Origin: Desulfurococcales archaeon ex4484_58
Lineage (GTDB): Archaea; Thermoproteota; Thermoprotei_A; Sulfolobales; Desulfurococcaceae
Assembly: GCA_002254665.1 (NCBI GenBank)
Contig: NJDP01000001.1
Span: forward strand, 1-45,651
Direction of reading: 5' to 3'
Length of the DNA: 45,651 bases
The position numbers and the translations under genes are program-made. Positions 22,465 through 39,800 of the stretch are shown here, one piece after another. Under the pieces are notes generated by a model. The model saw nothing but the letters and a program-made list of their open reading frames with translations. It had not been told where the DNA came from and did not search any database. How positions within the stretch are numbered: position 1 is the stretch's first letter; each line of letters starts with the position of its first letter.

Positions 22465-22522
22465 TCAGATGAGACAGGTTTCTTCATCCCCTAATTGGAG
22501 GTCGTGCCCGTGGATTCATCAT
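22465..22522 (-). ncRNA. C/D-box sRNA candidate s1
   Basis: Minus strand: C AUGAUGA (22522-22516), C' AUGAAGA (22487-22481), exactly 12 nt, D CUGA (22468-22465). The D guide AACCUGUCUCAU is complementary to the conserved LSU rRNA sequence GUGAGACAGGUU (from memory). The D' box is unclear. Confidence 0.55.
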
Positions 22523-22674
22523 TCCTCAATATATTTTATTATTTCGTGGAAAGTATTTCTTTTGCAGTATGGACAGTAATGGTATAGTTCTTGGTATTCC
22601 TTATCTAATGGAAAACTTCCATAGAATTTCCATTCACGTTTACAGTTTTTACATCGTAGTATCCAGTAAGTCAA
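22519..22674 (-). CDS. 51-aa zinc-ribbon mini-protein (below the ORF-track cutoff)
   Basis: TTG start 3 nt after the ASCH gene stop. Translation: (M)TYWILRCKNCKREWKFYGSFPLDKEYQELYHYCPYCKRNTFHEIIKYIEE, with two CxxC pairs. Confidence 0.4.
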   Translation of the reverse strand: MTYWILRCKNCKREWKFYGSFPLDKEYQELYHYCPYCKRNTFHEIIKYIEE

Positions 22675-22677
22675 TAT

Positions 22678-23271
22678 TCAATCATCCTCTTTCTTTAAAT
22701 AGCCTTTCTCGATCAATAGTGTAAGTGCTTTTTTAAGTATTCTTCTAACAACAAATCTCTTATTAAGACTACCGTATAATCGTAGCGTTGTTGCACGTAT
22801 ACTATTAGTTCTTGTTAGATCTAGTAAGATCTTTTTCTCCATATCATTTAATTCATCACTTAAATATCTAAGAGCTATACGTGCTATATCAACAGGGGAT
22901 AAACCCATGTAAGGATCGTGGCTGCTCAAATGATCCATTCTCTGCACAACCCTAAACTCTATGATCGTGACCCAAGATTCTTCATTAATGTCCTTATAGA
23001 CTTTCTTTAATTCCTCAATCAATTCTTCACGCGAACTAAAACCATCTTTCAACGCATCTTCATTACTTAGATCACGGACTCTCCTATGATAAACTCTCTC
23101 GATAAAAATCTTCGCTATTGGTCGTCCACCCCCATGAATTATCATTTCACGGTATTTAGGTTTAACGATACCCTTCCTAATAGTAGCTTTCTTCCTACCC
23201 TCCAATATATCCGATACATACTTACCTTTAACCATTAAGTGCCTACCAAGAAATCGGGGTTTCTCTTTCAT
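22678..23271 (-). CDS. ASCH (PUA-like) domain protein with a C-terminal helical, wHTH-like extension
   Basis: The N-terminal 110 aa resemble the ASCH fold (ILEGRKKATIRKG ... VTIIEFRVV). Confidence 0.6.
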   Translation of the reverse strand: MKEKPRFLGRHLMVKGKYVSDILEGRKKATIRKGIVKPKYREMIIHGGGRPIAKIFIERVYHRRVRDLSNEDALKDGFSSREELIEELKKVYKDINEESWVTIIEFRVVQRMDHLSSHDPYMGLSPVDIARIALRYLSDELNDMEKKILLDLTRTNSIRATTLRLYGSLNKRFVVRRILKKALTLLIEKGYLKKEDD

Positions 23272-23298
23272 ACCCCTATACCCTTCTTTGATAAAAAA

Positions 23299-25137
23299 TC
23301 ATGTTTTATAACTAGGTATTGGTCTCTGACTTAGATACATAGGCATAGTCATAGATATTTTTGGATAACCTTTAACTTCCTCTTCTAACATCTCTATAAA
23401 TTCATCAAGAGACATTATCTTTTGATCATTAGTCCTCCTAAACCTAACATTTAAAGTATTACTTTTAACTTCACGTTCACCAACGACAATAATATATGGG
23501 ATCCACTCACGACCCGCATCACGGATCTTTTTACCTAAGCTTTCATCGCGATCATCTATATCTACACGGAAACCATGTTCAGTTATTTTCTCAGCAATTT
23601 CTTTAGCGTATTCAATATACTGGTTAGTGACGGGTATGATCCTAGCTTGTATAGGAGATAACCAAGTAGGTATATATGGTGTTTTACCTTGTTTCTCCAT
23701 CAACGCAGCTGTATCAAGTACCGTGTAAATATATCTCTCAATACCACCAATAATAGCTGTATGAATTATTACCGGATGATGTTTCTCACCATTCTCATCA
23801 GTATATGTTATATTGAATCTTTCACCATTACCGACATCTATCTGGAAAGTAGCTATTTCTCTCGGTCTCTTCAAATTATCTATAATATGATATTCAACAT
23901 TTAAAACCCAATAATATATACCGGAGGGGATAACACAGATTAATGCTGGATAGTTTTCTCGTTTAACAAACTCGATTAATACATCTCTATACTTATTGAA
24001 GAAATCCTCGGTTACATTATATAGTGCAACATATCTCCTCCCAACCTTCCCGATCTCCTTTAAGATCTTCTCTTGAACTCTCTTCGAAACCTTGATAGCC
24101 TCCCTTAGATCACGTGTTAGAATATGTAGATCCGGCATATAGAACTTACGGAGACGAAAACATAGATTAAGCTCTCCCCTTTGCTCCAACCTATAACTAT
24201 CAGCTACCTCAAACATACCAAAAGGTAAATTCTTATAACTAATAATCCAGTCACGGAGCATGGCGAATTGTTGATGACAAGCAGCATACCTTAACACATA
24301 CCTATTATTATCAACCCTCAACTCATACAATCGATCACCAAATAATAGAGCATGCTCGAAGACGGGTTTCTCCGATAAGTTAAACATATTAGTACCCATT
24401 ACACGATAAACAGGAATACCTAGCTCCCGTACAATCTGCCATGAATACTCTTTAACCGCCTCCATCATAACTATAGCGTGTGGACCATACCTCATATGTC
24501 CATGATCACTCATAGGCTCCCATTCAAAACCGAATTTCCTACAATAATCGTTTACACGATTAACTCCGCCCGGCAACTCTCTACCAAAAACCTCTTTATC
24601 AACAAGTATCTTTAGATCCTCGTATCCTTCGTAATCGAATTCATTGGGTTTAAATAATTCGCCTTTAGGTGTCAATATATAAAATTCTTTCTTCAACTCA
24701 CGTCTAACAATAGTTGTTTCAGATTTAATCGTCTTAGATAACTCGCTTAATGGGTGGCCATAACATTCTAATGTGAATTCTTTATACCAGCCGAAAGGTG
24801 CTCTATAAACATTTAATGAAGTCTTAATACGGAGTTTTTCTTCAAATATCCTCATGATCTCTAAAGCTTTATGTGGTGGAGCTAAATCTTGTGAAAGATG
24901 AGCGTAAGGGTATAGTAGGATCGAGGATGGTTTTACTTGATCGGTAACCTCCAATAATTCATTAACAGCTTTATCAACAACAGCCTCATTATCCTCGGAC
25001 TCAACACTAGTTAATACAACGAGAACATTACTATATTCTCCACTAGCATTATTCTCGCCGATCTCTTCCCTATCCTTTATAGCCGGTTGTACAGCCTTAT
25101 ACCTAAACCTCCTAGCATGTATAAGCAATAATCTCAA
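23299..25137 (-). CDS. thrS: threonyl-tRNA synthetase, full length with the archaeal N-terminal editing domain
   Basis: Class II core plus anticodon-binding domain. The N-terminus (M)RLLLIHARRFRYKA... resembles the archaeal DTD-like editing domain. The ORF is open to 25176, but TTG 25137 gives the canonical N-terminus. Confidence 0.9.
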   Translation of the reverse strand: MRLLLIHARRFRYKAVQPAIKDREEIGENNASGEYSNVLVVLTSVESEDNEAVVDKAVNELLEVTDQVKPSSILLYPYAHLSQDLAPPHKALEIMRIFEEKLRIKTSLNVYRAPFGWYKEFTLECYGHPLSELSKTIKSETTIVRRELKKEFYILTPKGELFKPNEFDYEGYEDLKILVDKEVFGRELPGGVNRVNDYCRKFGFEWEPMSDHGHMRYGPHAIVMMEAVKEYSWQIVRELGIPVYRVMGTNMFNLSEKPVFEHALLFGDRLYELRVDNNRYVLRYAACHQQFAMLRDWIISYKNLPFGMFEVADSYRLEQRGELNLCFRLRKFYMPDLHILTRDLREAIKVSKRVQEKILKEIGKVGRRYVALYNVTEDFFNKYRDVLIEFVKRENYPALICVIPSGIYYWVLNVEYHIIDNLKRPREIATFQIDVGNGERFNITYTDENGEKHHPVIIHTAIIGGIERYIYTVLDTAALMEKQGKTPYIPTWLSPIQARIIPVTNQYIEYAKEIAEKITEHGFRVDIDDRDESLGKKIRDAGREWIPYIIVVGEREVKSNTLNVRFRRTNDQKIMSLDEFIEMLEEEVKGYPKISMTMPMYLSQRPIPSYKT

Positions 25138-25179
25138 AACCCTACACCCATCTATAGTTTCTAAACATGAATGCAAACC

Positions 25180-25614
25180 CTAAATAACTGATTCTTGACC
25201 AAACCCTTTCTTCTCTAGTTTCCCAGAACTCTTCATTTGCTGTAACTGTGAAATACCCGGCACTGGTGGAGGGATGCCGAGAGATCTACTGATCAATATA
25301 CTGTCTGCAATAGCGTTAGTGAATATAGCTTGTATTATTGGTGGAGGGATCTTCTTCTCTTTAACATCTTTATCTAGCTTCTTCAATTCATTCTCATTCT
25401 TAGCAATAACTAATGCATTACCCCTCAACACTATCTGTACAATTGGAGGTAGCGATGAAACAGTGAATGTAAAGGGTAATATGTATTGATTGCCTTTACG
25501 GATAGGTTCACCGGATGGGAGCGTTAAATTAACATTGAACTCTACCTTAGGCGGTAGAGTAGTAGCTAGTTTCTCGGCATTAATACTTGTTAACTGAACA
25601 GATATTGTATACAA
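25180..25614 (-). CDS. hypothetical protein, 144 aa
   Basis: Long ORF directly upstream of thrS on the same strand. No family recognised. Confidence 0.5.
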   Translation of the reverse strand: MYTISVQLTSINAEKLATTLPPKVEFNVNLTLPSGEPIRKGNQYILPFTFTVSSLPPIVQIVLRGNALVIAKNENELKKLDKDVKEKKIPPPIIQAIFTNAIADSILISRSLGIPPPVPGISQLQQMKSSGKLEKKGFGQESVI

Positions 25615-25765
25615 TCGTCATCCACCTTATAAACATATACTATGATATAATAGACAATATAGTTGTTAAATAACCTATCCATCTAAGCATCCCTTGGGTG
25701 TGGTTTAGTGAAAGTATTAAAGGGCAAATATAGAAAACCCTTAAATAGAAGGAGGTGTATGGTTT

Positions 25766-26728
25766 TTGACTGAGAAAAAAGACAAGATCCTAAAGTTAAG
25801 GGATATACCTGGAGTAACACCCACAATAGCTGAGAAACTAGAAGCAGCTGGATACATAACTCCATGGGCTATAGTAGTTAGTCGCGTAGAAGAACTAGCT
25901 GAAAAAGCAGGTATACCGCAGACCACAGCTGAGAGGATAATACAGAATGCTAGGAAGATCCTTGGTGTAACATTTAAGACCGCTAAACAAGTTAAAATGG
26001 AGAGATTAAGTATTAGGAAGATCACAACTGGTAGTAAGAATTTAGATGATCTATTGGGCGGAGGGATCGAAACAAAAACTATAACAGAGTTCTATGGAGA
26101 ATACGGTACAGGCAAAACACAGATCTGCCATCAACTAGCAGTTAATGTACAATTACCACCGGAACGGGGAGGATTAGCTGGTAAAACAGTATATATTGAT
26201 ACAGAGGGAACTTTTAGATGGGAGAGAATAGAAGCTATGGCTAGAGCATTAGGACTAGACCCGGATGAAGTAATGGATAATATTTATTACCAGAGAGCAT
26301 ATAATAGTGATCACCAAATATCAATAGTTGATGAACTATTCAAATTTGTACCAGAAAACAATGTTAAACTAGTAATAATAGATTCTGTTACAAGTCATTT
26401 TAGAGCAGAATATCCCGGTAGAGAACATTTAGCTGTTAGACAACAGAGATTAAATGCTCATCTACATCAGCTAGTAAAACTAGCAGAGATATATAACATA
26501 GCAGTTGTAGTAACAAACCAGGTAATGGCTAGACCAGATGTATTCTATGGGGATCCAACACAAGCTGTAGGAGGACATGTATTAGCACATACTCCTGGAG
26601 TTCGAGTTCAATTGAGGAGAGCCAAGGGTAGTAAAAGGATAGCTAGAGTAGTTGATGCACCACATCTACCAGAGGGAGAAGCAGTATTTGTGATAACAGA
26701 TGAAGGAATACGTGATCCAGAAGAATAG
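25766..26728 (+). CDS. radA: DNA repair and recombination protein RadA, no intein
   Basis: N-terminal HhH domain, Walker [10 protein letters not shown], Walker B VKLVIIDS. Confidence 0.93.
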
Positions 26729-26732
26729 AATT

Positions 26733-27536
26733 TTACGAAAATAGCTCGAAAAATGGTGTATCACCTAGTATTAGGAATAAAATAAAACCGATCAGCAATG
26801 GAACCATATATGGTACTCCATAAGTAACCCACACATATTCATCAGGAGATAATAACCCTTCCTCAACCAACTTCCTAAATTCCTCTTGATATTCCCAATA
26901 CTCTTCCTCTTCAACGTCAAATGTTAAACGAGTAATCCTCTTCAATACATTATCTTCAATCTTAAATATTGTTAAAGGATAATAGTATTTAGTACTTAAG
27001 AAATCACGGATAGTCATTGGTCTAGCCATAAACATTAGCGCGATCTTCTTAGATAATGGTATATCCTGGGGTAATTTATCATAATGTTTTATCGATATAA
27101 ATAGTGATTTAAATAACATTATAATGAGAGAAGAAATAGTGGAATACAATATTATTGGAAGAACAGGGGGTAGATGAAAAGGAAATTCTATCTTATAATA
27201 AATGATATCATATACATCTATCAATGGAAACAACAACGCTATCTCAGAAACAACGAATACATCAGCTAACCCGATAAAACCCATGAAATATAACATAGCG
27301 AAAAAACCAGTACTCAACAATATAGATAATACTGTATAACCGATCAATAATTGATATCCAAATCTACCTAGATAGAATGGAATAGATGCTATAAACAATA
27401 TGATGGAGACTATTAGAGACAACCATACATATCTATCCGGGATATCTCTATACTTTATATCATAATATGAAAACCAAGATAAAACAAGAACCGTATACAT
27501 AATTTTAACTACCAATATATAACCATATAAATTCAT
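26733..27536 (-). CDS. A24-family prepilin/preflagellin peptidase (PibD/FlaK-like) with a C-terminal extension
   Basis: Polytopic membrane protein with DIKYRDIPD (first catalytic Asp motif) and GFIGLADV (second). The ORF is open to 27611; a start at Met 27536 or 27500 is more likely. Confidence 0.65.
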   Translation of the reverse strand: MNLYGYILVVKIMYTVLVLSWFSYYDIKYRDIPDRYVWLSLIVSIILFIASIPFYLGRFGYQLLIGYTVLSILLSTGFFAMLYFMGFIGLADVFVVSEIALLFPLIDVYDIIYYKIEFPFHLPPVLPIILYSTISSLIIMLFKSLFISIKHYDKLPQDIPLSKKIALMFMARPMTIRDFLSTKYYYPLTIFKIEDNVLKRITRLTFDVEEEEYWEYQEEFRKLVEEGLLSPDEYVWVTYGVPYMVPLLIGFILFLILGDTPFFELFS

Positions 27537-27546
27537 GGAGATAACC

Positions 27547-27927
27547 ATGAAGAAACACCTATACTTTATCGATGTAAATATAAGGAATAGAGATTTAAAA
27601 ATAATAATCAAGAAACTGAGACCCTATAGAAAGAGACAATTCACTCTATATTTTCTCCGAAATAAAACAACTAACTATGTACTAGTAATACTTGGTCAAA
27701 TAAAGATCGAGTATAGAGAGAGAAGAATAAAAGATTATCTAAGTGGATTAACTTACCCTATACGTGAAGCTATTATTAAGAATTATAGAAGAGAGTTTAT
27801 CTATATATATTGGAATAAAACACATTACAGAATAAAAATTATGGAAAACCCATTAATGATAAAAATCGTTTGTAGTGATCCATTAGATTTACTAGATAAG
27901 GTTGATCAAGCATGGAAAACCATATAA
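27547..27927 (+). CDS. hypothetical basic protein
   Basis: ORF 27535..27927. No family recognised. Confidence 0.4.
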   Translation: MKKHLYFIDVNIRNRDLKIIIKKLRPYRKRQFTLYFLRNKTTNYVLVILGQIKIEYRERRIKDYLSGLTYPIREAIIKNYRREFIYIYWNKTHYRIKIMENPLMIKIVCSDPLDLLDKVDQAWKTI

Positions 27928-28436
27928 AGATCCTCTGGAATCCATGGCGATTTGAATATGTAAAAGACTCGATTAAACAAAAGGGAGCGTGCATATTATG
28001 TGAGTTACCTAAGAAAGGAGATGAGGAATCATATATATTGTATAGAGGAAAACACGCTTACATTGTACTGAACGCTTATCCATACAACACAGGACACTTA
28101 ATGATCGTTCCATACAAACATATTGGTAATCTCGAAGAATTGGGTAGAGAAGAACTTGTAGAGATCATGGATCTAACTGTAAAATCTATCAAGGTATTAA
28201 AGAAAAGCTATAATCCAGACGGTTTTAATATTGGAGTAAATATTGGAAGAGCTGCTGGAGCAGGTATAGCTGATCATGTACATGTACATATTGTTCCGAG
28301 ATGGGTTGGAGATACAAGCTTTATCGTCATATTTTCAGCTACAAAAAACCTTCCTCAAAGCTTAGATGAAACATATAAGTTATTAAAGGATACCTGGAAA
28401 GAGATATTTAGTGATGAAGAAGCCCTCGATCACTGA
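27912..28436 (+). CDS. HIT-family nucleotide hydrolase/transferase
   Basis: Histidine triad HVHVHIVPRW and LNAYPYNTGHLMIVP. Confidence 0.85.
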   Translation: MENHIKILWNPWRFEYVKDSIKQKGACILCELPKKGDEESYILYRGKHAYIVLNAYPYNTGHLMIVPYKHIGNLEELGREELVEIMDLTVKSIKVLKKSYNPDGFNIGVNIGRAAGAGIADHVHVHIVPRWVGDTSFIVIFSATKNLPQSLDETYKLLKDTWKEIFSDEEALDH

Positions 28437-28464
28437 GGAATGATGATGGCAGGGGTTTAACGGA
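28414..28464 (+). ncRNA. C/D-box sRNA candidate s2 (weak)
   Basis: C AUGAAGA (28414-20), 12 nt, D' CUGA (28433-36, containing the HIT stop codon), 3 nt, C' AUGAUGA (28440-46), 14 nt, D CGGA (28461-64). The 14-nt spacer is atypical. Confidence 0.3.
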
Positions 28465-28494
28465 TCATTGTTAAGTAATGGAGGGGTTTTAATA

Positions 28495-28713
28495 ATGATT
28501 AGTAAATCTAATTTTAGAATTATCGAGAAGTATGTCTTTCTTGGAGATATTAGATACAGGATAGCAATAATAGGTACTAACATAATATTTAATGTAAAGG
28601 CTTCAAATGAGGAAGAAGCATTAGAGAAAGCGAGTGAAATAGCTGAGAAGATGGGGTTAAATGATGATACCATAGAGCTTATTAGAGAGAAGTACAAAGA
28701 GAAGTCTAGATAA
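28495..28713 (+). CDS. hypothetical small protein
   Basis: ORF 28468..28713. ATG 28495 follows a GGAGGGG site. Confidence 0.4.
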   Translation: MISKSNFRIIEKYVFLGDIRYRIAIIGTNIIFNVKASNEEEALEKASEIAEKMGLNDDTIELIREKYKEKSR

Positions 28714-28725
28714 ATCTTAGTTTAG

Positions 28726-28781
28726 ATGAAGAAACTTGCCCCCCAGAGACCATATGGGATGAAGAAATTACCGCGAACGGA
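28726..28781 (+). ncRNA. C/D-box sRNA candidate s3 (weak to moderate)
   Basis: C AUGAAGA (28726-32), 11 nt, D' CAGA (28744-47), 11 nt, C' AUGAAGA (28759-65), 12 nt, D CGGA (28778-81). The D guide AAUUACCGCGAA contains 9 nt complementary to the SSU 530-loop CGCGGUAAU (from memory). Confidence 0.35.
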
Positions 28782-29027
28782 TCAGATCCTCTTAGCTCTC
28801 AACTCTTCTTTTTTCTTAAGCAAATCTTCATATTCACTATAGATCTCACGTATATATTTACCAAGGTCCTCGTATGGAACAATCTCTAATAGTCTCTTAA
28901 GAAACTTTGAGGCACATCTACTACTATGAAAACTTAAAACCAGGTCATTATACTTAATGACTATACCCTGTCCTTCAGGGAATTTTCTACCACAAACTAT
29001 ACATCTATATCTAACCCTAATCATCAC
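28782..29027 (-). CDS. L24e-like/TRASH-type zinc-binding small protein (not the ribosomal protein itself)
   Basis: CIVCGRKFPEGQGIVIKYNDLVLSFHSSRCASKF parallels the L24e CxxC...CxxxC fold, with His replacing one Cys. The C-terminus is an acidic coiled coil, not the basic L24e tail. Confidence 0.5.
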   Translation of the reverse strand: MMIRVRYRCIVCGRKFPEGQGIVIKYNDLVLSFHSSRCASKFLKRLLEIVPYEDLGKYIREIYSEYEDLLKKKEELRAKRI

Positions 29028-29036
29028 TCCCCCATC

Positions 29037-29765
29037 TCACTCCATATCACTACTACATCTCTCCAATCCAAGACCCAAAATTTTATCTCTAAGCTCAGAT
29101 ATAGCTTCTGTATAGAGCCTTATACGCGTCGAACCGGTTCTACGGTCGCGTAGCTCTACATATCTCCTTTTAGCATCGTATTCGAAACAGTACCTACTAC
29201 TAAACTCTATGAAAAACTTATCATTCAAAACCAGTCCTCTACGATATAATATGAAGTTTTGAGGCAACATTATATTAGAAGCTTTAATCCTCCTTGTAAC
29301 AAGTATACGGAGCAATGTCAATAAACCAAACACAAACTCATACATAAACAGATATGCTAAAAACCTTACAACTAACTCGTCTTCAAAGAGTTCTTTCAAA
29401 TATATAATTGATACAGGTAATATAACGTTATTATAGAACGGAAATATTATGAATACTAGAAAAGACAAGAGGAGAAGACTCATAGAAGCTGTTGCTTGTT
29501 TCTTTAACTCCTCCGTCAACGCGGTATCAAACATAGCGATCTTAATGGCATTCCTCTCCTTAAACAATGGTGAACCGAGCTCTCTCTGTGGAGGGATCTT
29601 CATCATAGAACGTGAACTCCTAAACATAAAACCCATCATCACTATGAAATAGATTATAAATACGAATAAGTAGTATTGTGGTATGAATGTGGTAACTAAA
29701 GTAATAAACAATATGCTAACCTGACTGATCAAAATCATTGAACGACGAGATGGTTGCCTCATCAT
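29037..29765 (-). CDS. hypothetical membrane protein (about 4 TM)
   Basis: Long ORF with hydrophobic segments. Confidence 0.5.
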   Translation of the reverse strand: MMRQPSRRSMILISQVSILFITLVTTFIPQYYLFVFIIYFIVMMGFMFRSSRSMMKIPPQRELGSPLFKERNAIKIAMFDTALTEELKKQATASMSLLLLSFLVFIIFPFYNNVILPVSIIYLKELFEDELVVRFLAYLFMYEFVFGLLTLLRILVTRRIKASNIMLPQNFILYRRGLVLNDKFFIEFSSRYCFEYDAKRRYVELRDRRTGSTRIRLYTEAISELRDKILGLGLERCSSDME

Positions 29766-29839
29766 CCTCGATCACTTTAATACCGATTCGAAAATATTAG
29801 TTATTGTTATAAAAACCTATAAAGATATAGTTTTCTAAG

Positions 29840-29890
29840 ATGATGAATCGCCACTAGCAGATGTATGGTGAAGAAGGTCCGTGTTACTGA
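29840..29890 (+). ncRNA. C/D-box sRNA candidate s4
   Basis: C AUGAUGA (29840-46), 11 nt, D' CAGA (29858-61), 6 nt, C' GUGAAGA (29868-74), 12 nt, D CUGA (29887-90). Intergenic. Confidence 0.65.
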
Positions 29891-29902
29891 ATATGGGAGG
29901 CG

Positions 29903-29954
29903 ATGAAGAAAAAATCTTACCAGAAAATAGAGTGAAGAAGTTATCCCCGACAGA
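29903..29954 (+). ncRNA. C/D-box sRNA candidate s7 (in tandem with s4)
   Basis: C AUGAAGA (29903-09), 11 nt, D' CAGA (29921-24), 7 nt, C' GUGAAGA (29932-38), 12 nt, D CAGA (29951-54). The D guide AGUUAUCCCCGA is complementary to the conserved LSU rRNA sequence CGGGGAUAAC (from memory). Confidence 0.45.
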
Positions 29955-29991
29955 GCCCCGCCTCAACATCTCTATCAAACTAGAAGTTCCC

Positions 29992-30519
29992 ATGCATATT
30001 TCAACAACAAAGATCGAGAAAATAGCTAGATTAAAATATGGTTGGAAAACACAGTTGATATCAACATATACCATAGAAGTACTGATCACAACAAACCCAA
30101 ACAATTACCCATTAGTTTTCCAGAAAATAAAAGAGTTCATCAATGAAATACCCAGAGAAGTACTACTATGTATAAGTTACTGGATCACCTTAAAGATCAC
30201 AGATCATATTTACTGCCGTGAAGGAGTAAAAATTAATGAAAAAACAATTACATTAAAGAATTTAAATGAAAAAACAATCTATATCTACTGTAATATGAAG
30301 AAAAAATATATGACAATACGCTTCATAGAAGAAAAGATCACAACAATAGATCCGTTGCAGATCCCTAAATCAATATTCATAAAATGTTATTCACCAACAA
30401 CTATACATGGAGTTTTAGATAAAATAGGTGAAGAAATATATACTAACATAGAGTATGTGATGAACGCCCTATCCAAAGACTCTATAAAAGTAGAGGATGA
30501 AGAAAAGAACCCAAACTGA
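29992..30519 (+). CDS. hypothetical protein
   Basis: The ORF is open from 29881 (GTG) or 29893 (ATG), but the first ~35 codons coincide with sRNA candidate s7. In-frame ATG 29992 (MHISTTKIEK...) is therefore proposed. Confidence 0.45.
   Translation: MHISTTKIEKIARLKYGWKTQLISTYTIEVLITTNPNNYPLVFQKIKEFINEIPREVLLCISYWITLKITDHIYCREGVKINEKTITLKNLNEKTIYIYCNMKKKYMTIRFIEEKITTIDPLQIPKSIFIKCYSPTTIHGVLDKIGEEIYTNIEYVMNALSKDSIKVEDEEKNPN
30457..30519 (+). ncRNA. C/D-box sRNA candidate s5, embedded in the 3' end of the preceding CDS
   Basis: C GUGAUGA (30457-63), 12 nt, D' AAGA (30476-79), 17 nt, C' AUGAAGA (30497-503), 12 nt, D CUGA (30516-19). The UGA of the D box is the CDS stop codon. Confidence 0.45.
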
Positions 30520-30522
30520 AAA

Positions 30523-31305
30523 CTATAATACAGTAAAACCACTCTTCTCTCTTAGGAATTCACGAAATCTCTTTGCATCATCATACATATAAATATTATT
30601 AAACATTATATACGCCGTATCAAATCTGAGATCACTTAGTATTTTATAGAGTTTCTCAAAATCCTCAACATTATATTTGTATCTATAGTTAACCTCACCA
30701 TGACCTATACCATGCAATCTTGAATAAACAATACCTTCGGGGTTATGTAGGGGAGTTCTCTTAAATAGATCAGTTACATGTAATACATTATGCTCCGCTA
30801 GTATATCTTTTAAGGTATCAGTTTCTTCAGCCCACCTACCTCTAGGCTCCCATCCAACTATTATTTCCCTTGAAGAAATATTTTTCACTTCACTGAAGAA
30901 CTTCTTAACCCAAACTATAGATTCCTCATTAAAAGGCATACTCGCCGGTGTCTGAAGAACCACTATTTTTGAATTAAGAATATACATTATCTCTAATATG
31001 TTCTCAAACGCCTTAATGTTCTCATCTGTAGGTTTTAAATATCCATAATTCTCTAGGTTACCCCCTGGTTTACTACGCATCTTCTTCCATGTAGGAGAGC
31101 TTGAGGGATGAGTTATTACTTGCCAAGCTTTAACGGTGAATTCAAAATCACTAGGTGCTTCACTCCTTAATTTCTCAACCAATTCTCTCTTAGGTAAATC
31201 ATAGAAGGTATTTTGAAGCTCTACAACCTTGAATTCATTATAATATCTAGCTCTACTACGAGCAAAACCACAACATCCAATTTTAACTAAAACCATATAT
31301 TTCAA
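30523..31305 (-). CDS. DUF72 (UPF0759) family protein
   Basis: N-terminal GCCGF...YYNEFKVVELQNTFY pattern typical of DUF72. Confidence 0.7.
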   Translation of the reverse strand: MKYMVLVKIGCCGFARSRARYYNEFKVVELQNTFYDLPKRELVEKLRSEAPSDFEFTVKAWQVITHPSSSPTWKKMRSKPGGNLENYGYLKPTDENIKAFENILEIMYILNSKIVVLQTPASMPFNEESIVWVKKFFSEVKNISSREIIVGWEPRGRWAEETDTLKDILAEHNVLHVTDLFKRTPLHNPEGIVYSRLHGIGHGEVNYRYKYNVEDFEKLYKILSDLRFDTAYIMFNNIYMYDDAKRFREFLREKSGFTVL

Positions 31306-31712
31306 CCTACAATCTCATTTACTTCAACTTCCTTAACTGGTTCAAGTTTAAGTAACAGCTCCTTTAATTCACGAGCTGTTGTTATTAAAGACTTTGATAG
31401 ATCAGCCACAATATAGCATTCACCTAACTCTCCACGCTTAATGACAACACATTTTAAAGCGACAATATCCACACCCTGATCAGCTATCGCTTTAGAGATC
31501 TCTGCAACAACACCTGGTCGATCCTCCACTTTAATACTAAGTTCCATAAGCTTAGCACGATTAGGTATCGGTGAAATAAATATCTTCTTCTCATCCATAT
31601 CAGCGATCAATAGTATATTCATACCCTCATGTATACCGAATGCTTCACGAATAGCTAGGGGTATAGTGATCCTTCCCTTAGAATCTACCTTAACCAGCTC
31701 TTTAAACCTCAT
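31302..31712 (-). CDS. AbrB/SpoVT-type DNA-binding domain fused to an ACT domain
   Basis: VDSKGRITIPLAIREAFGI (swapped-hairpin motif), then the ACT-like IKVEDRPGVVAEISKAIADQGVDI. Confidence 0.7.
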   Translation of the reverse strand: MRFKELVKVDSKGRITIPLAIREAFGIHEGMNILLIADMDEKKIFISPIPNRAKLMELSIKVEDRPGVVAEISKAIADQGVDIVALKCVVIKRGELGECYIVADLSKSLITTARELKELLLKLEPVKEVEVNEIVG

Positions 31713-31808
31713 ATCATAACCCCATAGTGGGTAGTTGGTAGGATTTTATTGATAAGGCTATTTTATGAATATTGTGTTAAGACATAAAAATACCTATTCT
31801 TAAAAACA

Positions 31809-32639
31809 CTAGAAAGGATATGGGAGATGAGTCAATACTTTTACATTATAATCAGCTAATCTCCTACTCCAATTCTCCCCCAACGCAAGTATTACTATAA
31901 TATCCTCTATATTAGCACGTGCTTTCTCGATCATAGACAACACCGTGTGTAGTGTACGGCCAGTATAGACTACATCCGCTAGAACCAACACATTATCTCT
32001 CCTACTTATCAAGTCTTTATCAAGAAACAATGTTTCAGTATCCTTTGGTGAACGTGGAACTATTCCCGTATAATATTGTATACCGGGATACGCCTTCTTT
32101 TTAACAAGTATTATTGGAACATTAAGTTCTATACCAAGCATTGTAGCTAGAGGCATAACAGCTTCAGCTGTAGCAACGATCTTAGTTAGATTCTTACCGG
32201 AAAGTTTAAGTGATAAAACAATCGTTAAGAGCCTAATAACATAGGGGTCTTTAAGAACTCTCGACAAATCGATGATATTGCTTCTCTCTTGTTCAACAAG
32301 ATCCTTCAATAAATACTCTATATCAATAGATAGAGAGATCCTAGCCAAAATCCTGACGGCTTGCTCATAGCTCGGAACAATATTACCCCGCACATACCGG
32401 CATAACACGGATTCTGGAATGCCAGTTAATTTATTCAACACTTTATACGATAAGCTAGGCTTCAATAATCTAAGTACTTCATTGGCTAGTAATCTAACTT
32501 TCAATCTATTCAACTTAGAATTAGCATAGATCCTATTAAGTACGCTAATCATATCATTTACTTCATCTTCACGTGGAACCCTAATAGCTATAGTCCTACC
32601 ACGTACACTCTTCCTACTCAACTCTACACCACTTCCCAA
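31809..32639 (-). CDS. HTH domain fused to a phosphoribosyltransferase domain (regulator-like PRTase)
   Basis: HTH (LTGIPESVLCRYVRG) in the N-terminal half. PRPP-binding loop VLVLADVVYTGRT. Confidence 0.65.
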   Translation of the reverse strand: MGSGVELSRKSVRGRTIAIRVPREDEVNDMISVLNRIYANSKLNRLKVRLLANEVLRLLKPSLSYKVLNKLTGIPESVLCRYVRGNIVPSYEQAVRILARISLSIDIEYLLKDLVEQERSNIIDLSRVLKDPYVIRLLTIVLSLKLSGKNLTKIVATAEAVMPLATMLGIELNVPIILVKKKAYPGIQYYTGIVPRSPKDTETLFLDKDLISRRDNVLVLADVVYTGRTLHTVLSMIEKARANIEDIIVILALGENWSRRLADYNVKVLTHLPYPF

Positions 32640-32743
32640 AAATACTTAGGGATGATAAAGATAATTTTTAAACATTTAAATAAAAATTTATCTATACCAA
32701 GCTTAATTAAGTATATACGGTAGAATTATATATAAGTAGTAGA

Positions 32744-32803
32744 ATGGGATGAACGGGGTTTTAAGTGCAGATTAGATGAAGAAAAACCCACGCGGTGACC
32801 TAT
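32744..32803 (+). ncRNA. C/D-box sRNA candidate s6 with doubly compensated C/D boxes
   Basis: 5-bp terminal stem AUGGG/CCUAU. C AUGAACG (32749-55), 12 nt, D' CAGA (32768-71), 4 nt, C' AUGAAGA (32776-82), 12 nt, D GUGA (32795-98). C positions 5-6 (A,C) can pair with D positions 2-1 (U,G). Confidence 0.45.
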
Positions 32804-32848: not shown

Positions 32849-33244
32849 ATGAATATACCACGTAATATACTAGAGGAAGTCGTTGGAGATAGCATATTCT
32901 CCGGAGAACCATACATGCTATTATGTAGGAGATGTAAGAAAGAATACCATGTATGTCTAATAATACAAGTATCACCCACAGATATAGAGGAGTACAGTAT
33001 TTTATTAAAAGGATTACTTATAACTGTAAGCAAAGATAAGCCTCTAGATAAACTTTTAGAGGAGATCTTTAAGAAAACATATACCATAAAATACTTGAAA
33101 GAAAAAATCTCCTTTTATATACCCCGTATTTATACGAGAACGCTTTATAGATACTTATGTGAAGGAGAAGATTGGAGAGAAAAAGAGATCAAAGCACTTG
33201 ATATAAAAGAGGCAATGATCTATTTCAACGAAGAGGGAGAATGA
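32849..33244 (+). CDS. hypothetical protein directly upstream of XPB
   Basis: The ORF is open from GTG 32795, which lies inside the D box of s6. ATG 32849 (MNIPRNILEE...) is preferred. Its stop lies 1 nt before the XPB start. Confidence 0.5.
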   Translation: MNIPRNILEEVVGDSIFSGEPYMLLCRRCKKEYHVCLIIQVSPTDIEEYSILLKGLLITVSKDKPLDKLLEEIFKKTYTIKYLKEKISFYIPRIYTRTLYRYLCEGEDWREKEIKALDIKEAMIYFNEEGE

Positions 33245-33245
33245 A

Positions 33246-34889
33246 TTGATCATACTCAAAGCTAAGAGATGGCTTGATAAAGAAGAATTCAAGGAAGTTA
33301 TGAGAATAGCTGATTATAATGGATATAGTAGGGATGGATCGATATTTATCTTTAATATCGATAAAGCTGTACGAAATGGTTACGGGTATGAAGATGTAAT
33401 ATCACTTATTAAAGAATATGGATTAGAAGTAGAGGATAATGGATTAGAAGAGTTAAAGAAACTCTATGGAGAGCTAAGTATAGTTATTGAATGGGATCGT
33501 GGTAGCGGCTACATTAAAGCAAGGATACCTAGAACCATATACTTCAAAGTAAAACCTATATTAATGGATTCTTCAGCAAAGTATGTTTCGAGAACAGAAC
33601 ACGAATATGTATATAGGATACTTCCATCAAAACTCTATATATTCAAGGAAAAGATCGATGGCTTGGGATTAAACGTTAATGATAGAAATAGTTTATTAAA
33701 AATAAAAAATCTTCCATACAATATTGAGCTAAGAGATATTAAGCTAAGAGATTATCAAATAGAAGCTCTTGAGAAATGGATTAAAAACAATAAACTAGGG
33801 ATAATAGCGTTACCAACGGGTTCCGGAAAAACAATAATTGGAATCGCCGCGATCACAAAAACTAATGTTAGAACATTAATAATAACTTATACACGTGAAC
33901 AAATGTTTCAATGGAGAGACTCGATTATAAGATATACTACACTAGAACCCGGTCTTGTAGGGTTAATATATAGTGAGGAAAAGAGGTTAGCACCAATAAC
34001 TATAACTACTTATCAAAGTGGATTTAGATTAATAAATGATATATCACCATATTTTAATCTCTTAATTGTTGACGAAGTCCACCATTTACCAGCTGATAAG
34101 TTTAAATACATAGCTCTACACAGTATCGCACCATATCGTATGGGTTTATCAGCTACGCCAGTACGTGAAGATGGTAAACATGAAGAACTATTCCCATTAC
34201 TCGGTGGAATAATATATTATAAAGCACCAGCTGAATTAGCTAATATGGGTTATTTAGCTAGATATAGAGTATATACTATAAAAGTAAAACCAACTATAGA
34301 TGAAGAAAAAGAATTCGAAAGACTTAGGAGAAAATATCGTTCATTAATTGGATACCAGAGTTTCCAAGAAGTACTCGAATCTGCTAGAAGAGGAGATGAG
34401 AAAGCACGTGAAGCATTAAAGATACACAGTCAAATTAGAATGTTACTTGCTAGATCAAAGTCTAAGATCGATAAAGCAGTGGAGATCGCTGAAAAAGAAC
34501 TAGCCAGAGGATCAAAGATCATAATTTTCACCCAATACGTTGAACAAGCGAAAGAGATCAGTAAAAGATTAAACGCCTATCTGTTAACGGGGGAAGTACC
34601 AGTCGATATTAGGAGAAGAACATTAAATAGATTCAAAGAAGAGTCTAGCGGTGTATTAGTAGTTACAACTGTAGGTGATGAAGGTCTAGATATACCGGAT
34701 GCCGATGTTGGAATAATAGTTTCAGGGACTGGTTCACGTAGACAATTTATCCAAAGACTGGGCAGGATCCTAAGACCTAAAGAAAAAGGAAAAGAAGCTA
34801 GATTATATGAAATAGTATTAGCTCGAACACCCGAAGAATACCATTCGAAGAAGAGAAAGAAGATCGATTTAGATGAATTCCTAGCCTAG
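33246..34889 (+). CDS. xpb: XPB/Rad25-type SF2 DNA helicase
   Basis: Motif I LPTGSGKT, motif II DEVHH, SAT, the RED motif (VREDG) and motif VI QRLGRILR. Confidence 0.85.
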   Translation: MIILKAKRWLDKEEFKEVMRIADYNGYSRDGSIFIFNIDKAVRNGYGYEDVISLIKEYGLEVEDNGLEELKKLYGELSIVIEWDRGSGYIKARIPRTIYFKVKPILMDSSAKYVSRTEHEYVYRILPSKLYIFKEKIDGLGLNVNDRNSLLKIKNLPYNIELRDIKLRDYQIEALEKWIKNNKLGIIALPTGSGKTIIGIAAITKTNVRTLIITYTREQMFQWRDSIIRYTTLEPGLVGLIYSEEKRLAPITITTYQSGFRLINDISPYFNLLIVDEVHHLPADKFKYIALHSIAPYRMGLSATPVREDGKHEELFPLLGGIIYYKAPAELANMGYLARYRVYTIKVKPTIDEEKEFERLRRKYRSLIGYQSFQEVLESARRGDEKAREALKIHSQIRMLLARSKSKIDKAVEIAEKELARGSKIIIFTQYVEQAKEISKRLNAYLLTGEVPVDIRRRTLNRFKEESSGVLVVTTVGDEGLDIPDADVGIIVSGTGSRRQFIQRLGRILRPKEKGKEARLYEIVLARTPEEYHSKKRKKIDLDEFLA

Positions 34890-35594
34890 AAACAGATCTG
34901 TTATCAACCAAACAATATATTCTCGTAAACTATAACAGTTTTTTAAAACATTAATCTCAACCAATCTATTGCTAGGTTTAAAGATAACTAAGGGTTTTAT
35001 CTCCCCCTCCAATCCACAAATATAACTTAAAACATGTACCATTGGTTTATACTTGATAGAATCTCTTAAAGCTTTACGATAAATGTTATCATTAAAACTC
35101 TTCCTACTATAAACCCATTGATAAGGAGCATTTACATGATCCAGTACAATCAATTCCCTACACACGATCTCCCCGTTTAAACACTTATAAACGACTCTAT
35201 AACCATTAACATTTATCTCTCCATCTAAACATTTGTTTAGAACATCCATAATAGATGATAATTTATTAATGTACTCCTCTAAATTTACACTAGTACAATC
35301 AATCCAAGCATCCCTAACCACAACATATATGTCTAGCTCAGGAAACCCTCTACTCAATTCACCGATAAGGTCTTCCGGTATATCTAACAGTATGAATGAA
35401 TAATAAGAAACCCCGTAATATTGTGGAGTATTAACAGCTCTACCATAAACTCTACCAAGAAAATAGCTTGGATAAGAAACTATCCTTAGATCCTTCAACC
35501 CTTTATCTTCTAGAAACCTTAGAAACTCTATATAACGGTGAATAAGCAACTTATATGGTTCAATAATATATGATCCATTAGGAACCCTAACCAT
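34881..35594 (-). CDS. hypothetical protein, 237 aa
   Basis: Long ORF convergent with XPB (9-nt overlap). No family recognised. Confidence 0.5.
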   Translation of the reverse strand: MVRVPNGSYIIEPYKLLIHRYIEFLRFLEDKGLKDLRIVSYPSYFLGRVYGRAVNTPQYYGVSYYSFILLDIPEDLIGELSRGFPELDIYVVVRDAWIDCTSVNLEEYINKLSSIMDVLNKCLDGEINVNGYRVVYKCLNGEIVCRELIVLDHVNAPYQWVYSRKSFNDNIYRKALRDSIKYKPMVHVLSYICGLEGEIKPLVIFKPSNRLVEINVLKNCYSLREYIVWLITDLFLG

Positions 35595-35668
35595 TACTAA
35601 ATAAACCTCTATAAAAATAGTTTTTAAACAATACTTATGTAACTCTAACTAAAATAGATGTTTTAACG

Positions 35669-36007
35669 GTGGTAAAAAATATGGAGAATGAAGAAAAGTT
35701 TAAGATAATAAAGTATTTTGAGGGAGAAGCTAAAATTGGAGAAGTTCTTCAAGGGTTCGAGAATCTAGTGATCAAACCAGAGGATCTAGCTAGTCCAGTT
35801 TCTTTCCAAATGGCAATAACTAGAATGATCGATACATTGATGAAGAGTATGTCAGAGGGTACTAAGAAGAAGTATATTGCTGAGATAAGGTTTAAAGATA
35901 GTACAGGTAACCCGGTTATAGTAGCAGTTGATCTTGGAGAGAATAAACCATTATTTACAAGTGATAAAGTGAAAGCTAGAATTTTGATCGAATTATATGA
36001 GGAGTAG
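35669..36007 (+). CDS. hypothetical protein
   Basis: ORF of 112 aa. ATG 35681 is the likely start. Confidence 0.45.
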   Translation: MVKNMENEEKFKIIKYFEGEAKIGEVLQGFENLVIKPEDLASPVSFQMAITRMIDTLMKSMSEGTKKKYIAEIRFKDSTGNPVIVAVDLGENKPLFTSDKVKARILIELYEE

Positions 36008-36317
36008 AGGGTTCTTTTTGAACAGAGAAGATTGTGGACGTTGGAGTAGATTATTGAAAAAGAGAGAACTACTAGCATATTATAGATTGTGTAGAGAAGA
36101 GAGTGAATGGAATATAGGCGAGGCAGTTGATCAGTTATGTAAAGAACTATTATTTACACGTAGAGTTTCTTTCTCGATCATTCGAAGATTGAAGAGAATA
36201 GGTTTATTAGTTCAAATAGATCATGTAAGATTCAGATGCGTTCCATTCACAAATTATATTGAAGAACTCTATAAGAATTATATTTGTAAGAAAAGAAGAC
36301 GATTAAAGACGGCTTAA
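35997..36317 (+). CDS. small winged-helix (wHTH) DNA-binding protein
   Basis: The segment EAVDQLCKELLFTRRVSFSIIRRLKRIGLLVQ looks like an HTH recognition helix plus wing. Confidence 0.45.
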   Translation: MRSRGFFLNREDCGRWSRLLKKRELLAYYRLCREESEWNIGEAVDQLCKELLFTRRVSFSIIRRLKRIGLLVQIDHVRFRCVPFTNYIEELYKNYICKKRRRLKTA

Positions 36318-36380
36318 CGCCAAGTTATTAAAAATACCTGTTTATTTTATATTCTATCCCTTATCTCTATGTTGACTTAG

Positions 36381-36680
36381 TTACTCTTCTTTAACCTTCA
36401 TCTTTATCTCAATGATACTTACTCTAGTCTCACGTCCAGCAGGGTTTGTTACTGTTTGACTCCCAATCTTAATGTCTTCAATATCAACTTTACCTGGCAA
36501 GAACCTGTTTCTAACGATCTCTACAGTATCTACAGCTTTACTGATAGCTCTACCACGAGCTTTTACAACAATGTCTTTGACACCCTGATGTATTAGAGTT
36601 AATACCGCTATTACATAGTTCATAACCGGTTTCTTACCAACTAAGACTGTATTTGCAGCTTGTGGCTCGGCTTCAGCCAT
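36381..36680 (-). CDS. albA: chromatin protein Alba (Sso10b-type, paralog 1)
   Basis: [14 protein letters not shown]...[22 protein letters not shown]. Confidence 0.9.
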
Positions 36681-36847
36681 TTCACGATCACCTAGGTTTT
36701 ATTGCTTATATATCGATTAATCTAACTAATCAAAGTGTGTATATAAAAGCTTTTCTCTTATACCACGATAGTTTCCCAGTGATACTTAGTCTCTTCTTTT
36801 TAAACAATACAGACCTCTCCTATCCTTACAACGAGGGATTAGTAGTT

Positions 36848-39800
36848 ATGACTGTAGATGTTAATCCAGTATACGAGAAACTATGTCCAATATGTGGAGG
36901 CAGAGCATCTGTCTCAGAAATAAAAATGTATGGTTCATGTAGAAGGTGTAGTACTAGAGAAAAAACAGTCTTAAATGCATTAACACTCCATCAAGTACTA
37001 TTAGATGAACAGAGAGAATTCAATAGTTTCTTCCAAAAAATAACCAACGGATATAAACCATGGGGTGCACAAGAAACATGGTTAAAACGATTACTAAACA
37101 ATGAGAATACAGTCATAATAGCACCAACTGGTATGGGTAAAACAACCCTCCTCCTAGCATACGCACTATACGCTTCAACCCGTTATCAGAAGAAAACATT
37201 AATATTGACACCAACGAAGACACTAGCAAAACAAACATATTTGAAACTATTAGAATATAGTGATAGATTAGACAATAGAAGACCTAAGATCCTATACTAC
37301 GACTCAAGTCTAAGTAAGAAGAAGAGAGAAGAACTATTAGAGAAGATCAAGAATGGAGAATACAATATACTAGTACTAACCAATCACTTCTTGATCAAAA
37401 GATTCGATCTACTAAGCAATGATCATATCCATATAGTAATGATCGACGATGTAGATGCACTATTGAAAAACAACAAGAATATAGCAAAACTACTCAAGTT
37501 ACTAGGGTATAGTGATGAACTAATTGAGAAAGTGAAGGAAAAACACAGGATTATATGGAAGATAATACTGTCGAAAACATTTGAGAAAGAAGAACTAATT
37601 GATCAATACATCCATAAACTAATAGAGATAGAGGAGGAAATAGAAGAATTAATGAGAAAAACTAAGAAGAGACAAGTAATAATAGCTTCCGCAACAGGTA
37701 AAATGAAAGGTTCAAATGCTAAAATACTTAGAGAACTTTTAAGGATCGATGTATCCGGTATAACTATATATGGGAGAAACATAACCGATACATATAAGTT
37801 AATAGATAATGATCCATCGGAGATCAATAAAATACTTACAACCCTTGGAAAAGGGGGATTAATACTAGTAAGCCCTAGACACCCGTTTAGAGAAAAAATA
37901 GATTCTATAGTACAAAGTATTATCAAAGAATTAAGGAATAAAGGGTTTAGAGTTGAAGAAGCTACACCATCAAATGTGAAGAAGTTTATTGAAGGAGAAA
38001 TAGATTATTTGATTGGGAGCTCAAGCTATTATGGAATATGTGTCCGTGGAATAGATGCTCCAAAAACTATTAGATACGTTGTATTCCTAGGTACACCAGT
38101 CTTTACAGTAGAACTAGATACTCTATTAGCATCCCCCAATATGCTGGTTAGAACCGCTCTATTTCTAGCTGAATACTATGGAGAAAATAGATATAGAAGA
38201 ATAGCTTGCGAGATTAGAAAGAAAATATTTACATTAACAAATAGTGAGTTAAGAATAATTTCGATGTTATTAAAAAAGAAGCTTACATTAAATGATCTAA
38301 ACAATAAGAAACTAGAGAATGTTTACAAATCTCTCGAGGAATACTATAGAGATATACTAAACGATCTAAAGGCACTGCTCAGTAGAGAAAAAGTATTAGA
38401 AGTAAACACGTTAACGTTCTATTATAATGGAGAGAAGTATGTAGCGATGATACCGGATGTACTAACATATATTCAGGGTAGTGGGAGAGCTAGTAGATTA
38501 TATCTAGGCAGGATGACCCATGGATTATCAATAATATTTGAATTCCATGAACTATCAAATCTAGTTAAAGCATTAGACCTAAAACTAAGCTTCTACAGCG
38601 GATCAAGACTATTTAGAGAACTTGATAAGATCGATTTAGAGAAGGAATTAGATGAGATAATAAGTTCTCGGAGAAACATAGATATACCCGGTAGTATAAA
38701 GTATAAGAATATCCTAGTAGTAGTAGAATCACCTACTAAAGCAAAATCTATTGCTAAATTCTTTGGTAAACCAGTTAAGAGGAAGATTGGAACAGTAAAT
38801 ATCTATGAAATACCATTTGTTAAAAACAATGAAGTATATCATTTAAATATTATGGCTACACGTGGACACATATATGATTTAACAACTAACCCTAAAACAC
38901 CTAATCACGGAATAGTGTTTAACCATAAAGAGATTCAGCCACACTATGATACGATCAAGAGATGCCGTGTATGTGGTCATCAATTCACATACGGTGATCA
39001 ATGTCCAAGATGTGGAAGTAGAAGCTATATCGATTCATTAGAAATAATTAATGTACTAAGGAAACTAGCTGGAGAAGCTCATGAGATCTATATAGCAACA
39101 GACCCTGATATTGAGGGTGAAAAGATAGCTTATGATGTCTACTTAGTTGTTAAAGAATTCAACAAGAATATTTGGAGAATAGAACTACATGAGATCACCT
39201 TGAGAGAATTCATGAAAGCACTGGAAAGGAAGAGAAGTATAGATGAAAAACTAGTTGAAGCAGAGATCTATAGAAGAAGCCTTGATCGATTAATAGGTTT
39301 TAGTCTAAGCCATGAACTATGGAGAAAATATGGTAAGAAATGGTTTGGAGCTGGACGGGTTCAGACACCAGTTTTAGGATGGATTATTGATAAGTATAAT
39401 GAGTACTCCCGGAATAAATGTAGAAAACTAGTGTTCCGGGTGAAAGATTATCCTAGAATACACTTATCTATATGTATACCATATAAAGACAGGGATCTAT
39501 ATGATAAGCTATCTAGTATCGGAAAGGCCCGGTTTAAACACGTTAAAACCTATATAGAGACTATAAATCCAAAACCACCCTATACAACTGATGAACTACT
39601 ATATGATGCTAGTAGATATGGTATATCATCATCTACAACTATGAAAATAGCACAGGAACTATTTGAATCAGGATTAATAACATATCATAGAACAAACCAC
39701 CACTACATATCATCAACCGGCATCTCTATAGCTATGAAGTATTTGGAAGAAAAGAAACTAATAGAATATAGTAAACCAAGCCATTGGGGCGAACCGGGAG

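Follow-up and report, generated by a model that had tools for sequence, protein, structure and literature searches.

The window analysed here is a 45,651-nt stretch of contig NJDP01000001.1 (positions 1 to 45,651) from Desulfurococcales archaeon ex4484_58. It very probably carries seven genuine genes for archaeal C/D small RNAs (sRNAs), named s1 to s7, many of whose C boxes read UGAAGA and face a D box of the CAGA type. The original prediction, made from the sequence alone, had proposed that an A at position 5 of the C box (A5) is systematically partnered by a purine at position 2 of the D box, and that this switch from U:U to A:purine is distinctive of the organism. That the loci are archaeal C/D sRNAs has strong support from their conservation, guide complementarity and published counterparts, and the covariation between the two positions is real, but it is looser than claimed, runs one way and is common to other archaea. 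The reading that we favour, with a probability of about 0.85, is that the seven loci are genuine and that their UGAAGA/CAGA-type boxes are lineage-wide variants of the kink-turn (K-turn) with one-way covariation, not a property of this organism. Anatomy, conservation, complementarity to rRNA and box covariation were each observed in this analysis and are described below.

To delineate the loci, both strands were scanned for the pattern C(7)-N10-13-D'(4)-N2-22-C'(7)-N10-13-D(4), with A or U at position 5 of the C-type boxes and only loose restrictions at positions 1 and 2 of the D-type boxes. No coupling between C position 5 and D position 2 was imposed. The uncoupled scan recovered s2, s3, s4, s7 and s5, together with an artefact that spans s4 and s7 and a further locus, and a slightly looser scan brought in s1 and s6 (Table 1). 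Since seven full layouts were observed against a mean of 0.01–0.03 in simulated windows (100 windows each for Markov orders 1, 3 and 5), the layouts are not products of chance. The half-motif RUGAAGA-N11-12-CNGA, predicted to be more frequent than in a shuffled-type background, indeed occurs eight times where Markov simulations of the window gave 0.3–0.6. All seven loci lie where they had first been placed; their spacers, by contrast, had been given as 11 or 12 nt and range from 10 to 14 nt in both halves (C to D' and C' to D), with registers that are kept in orthologues.

Table 1. The seven C/D sRNA genes of the window, with box layouts and the base pairs at C5:D2 (3b:3n) for the terminal motif (C/D) and for the internal one (C'/D')
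Locus	Positions	Strand	Layout	Terminal 3b:3n	Internal 3b:3n	Remark
s1	22465..22522	-	AUGAUGA-N10-ACGA-N14-AUGAAGA-N12-CUGA	U:U	A:C	
s2	28414..28464	+	AUGAAGA-N12-CUGA-N3-AUGAUGA-N14-CGGA	A:G	U:U	second half also readable as AUGAUGG-N11
s3	28726..28781	+	AUGAAGA-N11-CAGA-...-AUGAAGA-N12-CGGA	A:G	A:A	first half also readable as N13-GAGA
s4	29840..29890	+	AUGAUGA-N11-CAGA-N6-GUGAAGA-N12-CUGA	U:U	A:A	
s7	29903..29954	+	AUGAAGA-N11-CAGA-N7-GUGAAGA-N12-CAGA	A:A	A:A	
s5	30457..30519	+	GUGAUGA-N12-AAGA-N17-AUGAAGA-N12-CUGA	U:U	A:A	
s6	32749..32798	+	AUGAACG-N12-CAGA-N4-AUGAAGA-N12-GUGA	A:U	A:A	terminal 4b:4n C:G

In K-turn numbering, positions 3 to 6 of the C box are 1b to 4b and positions 4 to 1 of the D box are 1n to 4n. 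C5 thus stands opposite D2 (3b:3n) and C6 pairs with D1 (4b:4n) (PMC6009581, PMC5689011), which is the geometry assumed in the original prediction. At both ends of all seven loci xUGAxxx and xxGA are kept, so that the tandem G.A pairs can form; variation falls on C positions 5 and 6 and D positions 1 and 2. The box variants are, in other words, changes at 3b:3n and 4b:4n of the non-canonical stem. The internal D'/C' motif of s1 and s3 is closed by a CC/GGG stem, which in orthologues takes the form GA-CC...GG(G)-AUGA, and that of s5 by a 5-bp hairpin (CUCUA/UAGAG). Because a short conserved stem closes D'/C' in these three RNAs, their internal motif is a true K-turn and not a kink-loop (K-loop). 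In s2, s4, s6 and s7 the D'-C' loop is 3–7 nt long, and s6 can form a 5-bp terminal stem (AUGGG/CCUAU). The D' box of s1 was assigned as ACGA, 10 nt after C, because orthologues fix this register. An alternative C box for s2, GUGAUGA at 28411, was rejected, since the orthologues place the C box 12 nt ahead of D'.

Orthologues with conserved guides were found for all seven loci in related uncultured genomes and metagenomes, whose loci or contigs carry L-numbers here. A metagenome scan with both s3 guides yielded 119 loci, about 85 of them with a complete s3-like sRNA, representing 61 unique sequences. When the 95 s3-bearing contigs (758 kb) were searched with the uncoupled scan, 116 layouts were obtained against two in simulations, and on many of these contigs orthologues of s2, s4, s7, s1, s5 and s6 lie in the same order. 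The s1 orthologues (L001, L003, L123, L148, L005, L184) retain ACCUGUCUCA as D guide, as well as the GA in D'. Orthologues of s2 at the 3' end of the HIT gene occur in four Desulfurococcaceae metagenome-assembled genomes (MAGs) and a Sulfolobaceae MAG (L001, L002, L010 and L014, the last being the Sulfolobaceae locus), and further ones in L117, L184, L192, L123 and L088. At least 15 orthologues of s4 were found, and an s7 orthologue follows s4 in L002, L107, L087, L117, L122, L124, L154 and L148. For s5, 16 distinct orthologous sequences conserve the D' guide CGCCCUAUCC and all have terminal RUGAUGA/CUGA, while their D' and C' boxes are degenerate. Orthologues of s6 are present in L001, L003, L010 and L148.

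Conserved 16S or 23S sites of other archaea are complementary to the guides of s1, s2, s3, s4 and s7 over 9–11 contiguous nucleotides, or 8 nt in the case of the D' guide of s1. Both guides of s1 have their complements in 23S, UGAGACAGGUU for the D guide and CCCGUGGA for D'. The two guides of s2 fit a single region of 16S, at AAACCC(C)UGCC and GAUCGAGGG; those of s3 have complements in 16S GGGGGCAAGU and CGCGGUAAU, two sites at the 530 loop separated by about 20 nt. For s4 the matches are to AACACGGNCC and GUGGCGA in 23S, at a distance of about 25 nt from each other, and the s7 D guide AGUUAUCCCCGA is complementary to CGGGGAUAAC, a sequence common to 16S and 23S. The use of double guides for neighbouring sites is a pattern that Dennis et al. 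2015 describe (PMC4644070). Published counterparts were found as well. The Ignicoccus hospitalis sRNA IHOsR206, detected by RNA-seq and with predicted targets at 16S C505 and G482 (PMC4644070), is an orthologue of s3; IHOsR401 is an orthologue of s4, and the D guide of IHOsR414 is that of s7. Both s6 guides (GGUUUUAAG, AACCCACG) are common to Pyrobaculum calidifontis sR65, and its D guide also to Thermoproteus tenax sR144, at order-level distances. The I. hospitalis and P. calidifontis orthologues are known from RNA-seq, and no rRNA target was predicted for the published counterpart of s6 (PMC4644070). We take the seven loci to be real C/D sRNA genes on three independent lines of evidence, namely conserved guides, complementarity to rRNA (for s1–s4 and s7) and published counterparts.

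Within the window, the 14 motifs divide at C5:D2 into four U:U, six A:A, two A:G, one A:C and one A:U, with A at C position 5 in ten of them. The association between U5 and U2 is significant (Fisher's exact test, p = 0.005) and real in the window despite the small sample; the list of box pairs from which it had first been drawn had omitted the A:C pair of s1. As predicted, U5 is nearly always partnered by CUGA, in all four cases in the window, in 29 of 32 terminal K-turns of relatives and in 29 of 29 motifs of Nanoarchaeum equitans. The complementary claim, that A5 is partnered by a purine, describes the window (eight of ten) but not the relatives.

In the terminal K-turn of the 61 unique s3 orthologues, U5 faced U in 15 of 17 sequences (A and G once each) and C5 faced G in seven of eight (A once). 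G5 (n = 4) faced U three times and C once, and A5 (n = 32) faced U 19 times, A nine times and G and C twice each. Positions C6 and D1 read G:C in 54 of these sequences, G:A in four, C:G in two (ATGACCA/GGGA) and A:A in one, and never G:G or C:C. Together with the C:G of s6, this is the 4b:4n covariation expected of a standard K-turn. Pooling 98 unique sRNAs, A5 faced U 40 times, A 38, G 22 and C eight times over both motifs (n = 108). In the terminal K-turn the partners of A5 were A 17, G 8, U 27 and C 4, and those of U5 were U 29 and other bases three; in the internal C'/D' motif, A5 faced A 21, G 14, U 13 and C 4, and U5 faced U 18, G 10 and other bases three. The internal U:G cases are the s3 variant AUGAUGA/UGGA, with two wobble pairs. 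This variant marks a sub-lineage of s3 (L087, L095, L115, L117, L119, L122, L124, L154, L163, L184) with U:G at 3b:3n and G:U at 4b:4n. The D' guide spacer of the s3 family is 13 nt instead of 12.

Individual families show the same asymmetry between U5 and A5. Across its orthologues the terminal motif of s2 takes the forms A:G, A:U, A:A, A:C, G:U, G:C and U:U. In the s3 sub-lineage with C box AUGAAGA the D box drifts among CUGA, CAGA and CGGA, whereas CUGA is retained in the AUGAUGA sub-lineage (about 12 unique sequences). The dependence is one-way: a base other than U at D2 nearly always needs a base other than U at C5, and A5 tolerates A, G, U and occasionally C. The double compensation originally described for s6, at both 3b:3n and 4b:4n, was borne out. 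The C:G pair of s6 at 4b:4n is kept in L001, L003 and L010, the L010 orthologue carries a compensatory change (AUGAGCG/GCGA), and comparable flips occur in the s3 orthologues with ATGACCA/GGGA and in IHOsR401 (AUGAGCG/GCGA).

The published sRNAs of the Dennis et al. supplement (PMC4644070), which RNA-seq had validated, were parsed with a scoring blind to C5 and D2. Among 24 sRNAs of N. equitans, terminal motifs were U:U 14, A:A 8 and A:U 2, and internal ones U:U 15, A:A 4, A:U 3, A:C 1 and C:U 1. Over both motifs this gives U:U 29, A:A 12, A:U 5 and U:purine 0 (p = 1.4e-7). In I. hospitalis the terminal K-turn is G:C in 20 of 34, G:U in four and U:U in three, and many of its sRNAs, including IHOsR401, have AUGAGCG/GCGA, in which 3b:3n has become G:C and 4b:4n C:G; this is the GC-rich analogue of the s6 boxes. 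In T. tenax U:U is found in 26 of 33 terminal K-turns, and the internal motifs include many G:C and A:N. The dominant 3b:3n pair thus differs by lineage, being A:A and A:G here and in N. equitans and G:C in Ignicoccus. N. equitans is AT-rich and Ignicoccus GC-rich, and in our reading the box 'dialect' follows base composition. Such variation belongs to archaeal C/D sRNAs in general.

Several observations weigh against our interpretation. Among the public runs searched, no RNA-seq run carried the window sequence, the only runs that did being marine-sediment metagenome DNA runs. At gathering level, Rfam found an RNase P RNA and one tRNA in the window and no CD-box match, and none of the seven loci reached a CD-box gathering threshold. 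The closest was s4, which aligned to sR5 (RF01304) over positions 1–53 of 53 with 37.6 bits (E = 7e-6) against a gathering score of 40. The other six gave weak matches (E >= 0.05, for s7 to sR39 with E = 0.05) or none. Sub-threshold scores say little against the class, because archaeal CD-box models are guide-specific, and the weak matches in the region are almost all to archaeal CD-box families and sit on the predicted loci. The rRNA targets were read from alignments of other archaea (Dennis et al. 2015 supplement, PMC4644070), and no locus fetched from relatives contained rRNA genes. For s5 and s6 no rRNA target was found in those alignments, and no guide matched the tRNA or RNase P RNA of the window. 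The D' register of s3 is ambiguous (CAGA or GAGA), with orthologues favouring GAGA, 13 nt after C; position 2 is A either way. The mutual information between C5 and D2 in the 98 sRNAs was exceeded by 0.02% (terminal) and 0.8% (internal) of permutations, and these p-values (p <= 0.008) are optimistic, because the environmental orthologues include related sequences and are not phylogenetically independent.

That the motifs are not RNA genes but chance by-products of an AT-rich genome, in coding sequence rich in Glu, Lys and Met (GAAGAA, ATGATG), we find hardly credible. RUGAAGA heptamers are common in the coding sequence of the window, and an eighth full layout, on the minus strand at 29639-29585 in the DUF2208 membrane-protein gene, is such an artefact; it derives from Met-Met codons, and its boxes are not conserved in seven orthologous genes. 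The order-5 Markov null, however, which keeps the hexamer content of coding sequence, yields 0.03 layouts against the seven observed, and the guides, besides being complementary to rRNA, are conserved between genes on many contigs. A further alternative is that C5 and D2 are not structurally coupled and drift independently under AT-biased mutation, their association reflecting shared ancestry. This would account for the tolerance of all four partners by A5 and for the appearance of G and C at C5 and D2 in GC-richer contigs and organisms, and it fits the finding that L7Ae folds all 16 3b:3n variants of Kt-7 (PMC4382518). Against it, the unrelated families of N. equitans, with no U:purine pair beside 12 A:A pairs, show the same coupling, U5 lineages hold U2 almost invariantly while A5 lineages vary, and Watson-Crick flips recur as C5:G2, G5:C2 and C6:G1. 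We regard independent drift as quite improbable.

The switch originally proposed, organism-specific and systematic from U:U to A:purine, with RUGAAGA obligatorily combined with C(A/G)GA, appears unlikely, if marginally less so than independent drift. It describes the window well, where A5 mostly faces a purine and U5 always faces U, and it is also consistent with the s4 family, where about 13 of 15 orthologues have A:A or A:G in the internal motif and none has A:U. In the relatives, however, A5 faces U as often as A (40 and 38 of 108), and the s3 and s2 orthologues have A:U, A:C, G:U and G:C at the homologous K-turn. The purine fraction of the window A5 boxes does not differ significantly from the 56% found in relatives (p = 0.11), and the window itself contains A:C in s1 and A:U in s6. 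Nor is the pattern distinctive of this organism, since the same UGAAGA/CAGA coupling is found in N. equitans, and Ignicoccus has UGAGGA/CCGA. Genuine C/D sRNA genes with lineage-wide K-turn variants and a one-way dependence of D2 on C5 remain the best explanation of these data.

By analogy with the established pathway, the seven sRNAs would be expressed, assembled into ribonucleoproteins (RNPs) and used to direct methylation. Box C would meet D to form the terminal K-turn, and C' would meet D' to form an internal K-turn or K-loop; L7Ae would bind both motifs, after which Nop5 and fibrillarin would assemble. The 10–14-nt spacers are expected to pair with rRNA, s1–s4 and s7 guiding modification of 16S or 23S and s2, s3 and s4 acting as double guides, each for two neighbouring sites. 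2'-O-methylation would then fall on the target nucleotide that pairs five positions upstream of D or D'. The targets of s5 and s6 may be tRNA, which is a guess; the s6 guides look as though they may anneal to the T-arm of a tRNA and to an anticodon loop with UAA. Both s4 and s6 are preceded by TATA-like boxes, 22 to 33 nt and 20 to 37 nt upstream respectively, and s1, s2, s3 and s5 abut or overlap the ends of open reading frames (ORFs), which may reflect the usual mix of independent and read-through expression (PMC7994747). Since s7 begins 12 nt downstream of s4, head to tail, the conserved s4-s7 tandem suggests a dicistronic sRNA unit. The three stop codons noted within boxes are exactly where the original prediction saw them, that of the HIT ORF (28434-28436) in the s2 D' box, that at 30517-30519 in the s5 D box and that of a 51-aa ORF (22521-22519) in the s1 C box. 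That C/D boxes contain the stops of upstream genes is, though, documented as a general feature, about 25% of sRNA genes overlapping a 3' ORF end (PMC7994747, citing Tripp 2017).

These results add seven well-supported methylation-guide genes for an uncultured Desulfurococcales-like lineage, including double guides for the 16S 530-loop region and 23S. They are an incremental refinement and introduce no new mechanism. The textbook RUGAUGA/CUGA consensus misses most K-motifs here, so that software used to annotate AT-rich archaea should allow RUGAAGA with CNGA as well. The way in which D2 depends on C5 also makes a compact, testable statement on the 3b:3n pairs that L7Ae-type RNPs tolerate in vivo. 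More tentatively, the data may reflect a one-way 3b:3n rule, so far without explicit statement, in which the D-box U changes only after the C-box U and dialects track GC content (U:U everywhere, A:A and A:G in AT-rich and G:C in GC-rich genomes), a possibility that we consider doubtful at present. If this rule held, it would allow better sRNA gene finders for AT-rich archaea, and Kt-7-like A:G K-turns such as those of s2 and s3 might fold without L7Ae, which would contradict the general view that the K-turns of archaeal box C/D RNAs are built to remain unfolded before a protein binds. It is a matter of speculation whether A:A and A:G could lengthen the stack of sheared purines in the way that A:G does in Kt-7, and so alter protein-independent folding.

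The source of the window is an uncultured, AT-rich, Desulfurococcales-like archaeon. The G+C content is 35.6%, and the closest matches of the HIT protein are in uncultured Desulfurococcaceae and Staphylothermus MAGs at no more than 68% identity. Besides this protein, genes in the region of interest encode an archaeal-type threonyl-tRNA synthetase (ThrRS), RadA, a prepilin peptidase, DUF2208 and DUF72 proteins and an XPB-like helicase. The 51-aa ORF at 22519-22674 on the minus strand, whose stop is the UGA of the s1 C box, encodes a zinc-ribbon-like CxxC...CxxC protein with no Pfam match. All seven sRNA genes lie within about 10 kb (22.4–32.8 kb) of the 45.6-kb window, and no convincing C/D layout was found in 1-22400 or 33000-45651. 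Four extra matches of a looser scan with degenerate C'/D' boxes (9577, 33215, 40585 and 7206) were discarded as noise, the null expectation being 2.65 per window. Elsewhere, Rfam identified an archaeal RNase P RNA at 41625-41967 on the plus strand (147.6 bits) and an intron-containing tRNA at 43370-43477 on the minus strand, with TGC in the anticodon region, which is probably a tRNA-Ala; ARAGORN missed the latter and reported no tRNA in the window.

The closest known counterparts are the Ignicoccus sRNAs IHOsR206, IHOsR401 and IHOsR414 (PMC4644070). These have guides in common with s3 (ACUUGCCCCC and AUUACCGCG), s4 (CGCCAC and CCGUGUU) and s7 (AGUUAUCCCCG), and they resemble them further in double-guide architecture and in their predicted 16S and 23S target regions; the Ignicoccus RNAs were detected by RNA-seq. 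They differ in having mostly G:C or C:G at 3b:3n and 4b:4n (AUGAGGA/CCGA, AUGAGCG/GCGA) where the window has A:A, A:G or U:U. The sRNAs of N. equitans (Randau 2012, PMC3491384; sequences in PMC4644070) share the box dialect, with AUGAAGA facing CAGA in 12 motifs and AUGAUGA facing CUGA in 29, as well as compactness and 12-nt spacing. In contrast, they belong to another phylum, have different guides, are not orthologous and include no A:G in the parsed set. The main texts of PMC3491384 and PMC4644070 do not mention the coupling, as far as searched, and no explicit statement of it or of the one-way rule was found in the literature searched; the data in which it can be seen were published in 2012-2015. 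The K-motifs of Pyrobaculum C/D sRNAs are more variable than those of Pyrococcus, with base-pair-type variability plotted per position (Lui et al. 2018, PMC6009581); they have other box preferences than those found here, and that paper gives no A:purine rule. Lilley and co-workers describe archaeal box C/D K-turns with a strong propensity for U:U at 3b:3n with G:C at 4b:4n (PMC5689011, PMC4382518), unlike the window, where U:U is a minority (4 of 14), although C5 opposite D2 is the standard K-turn non-canonical stem in both. The terminal K-turns of s2 and s3 share A:G at 3b:3n with Kt-7 of Haloarcula marismortui 23S rRNA (PMC4382518, PMC5689011). According to the same authors, G at 3n favours Mg-induced folding and every 3b:3n variant folds with L7Ae.

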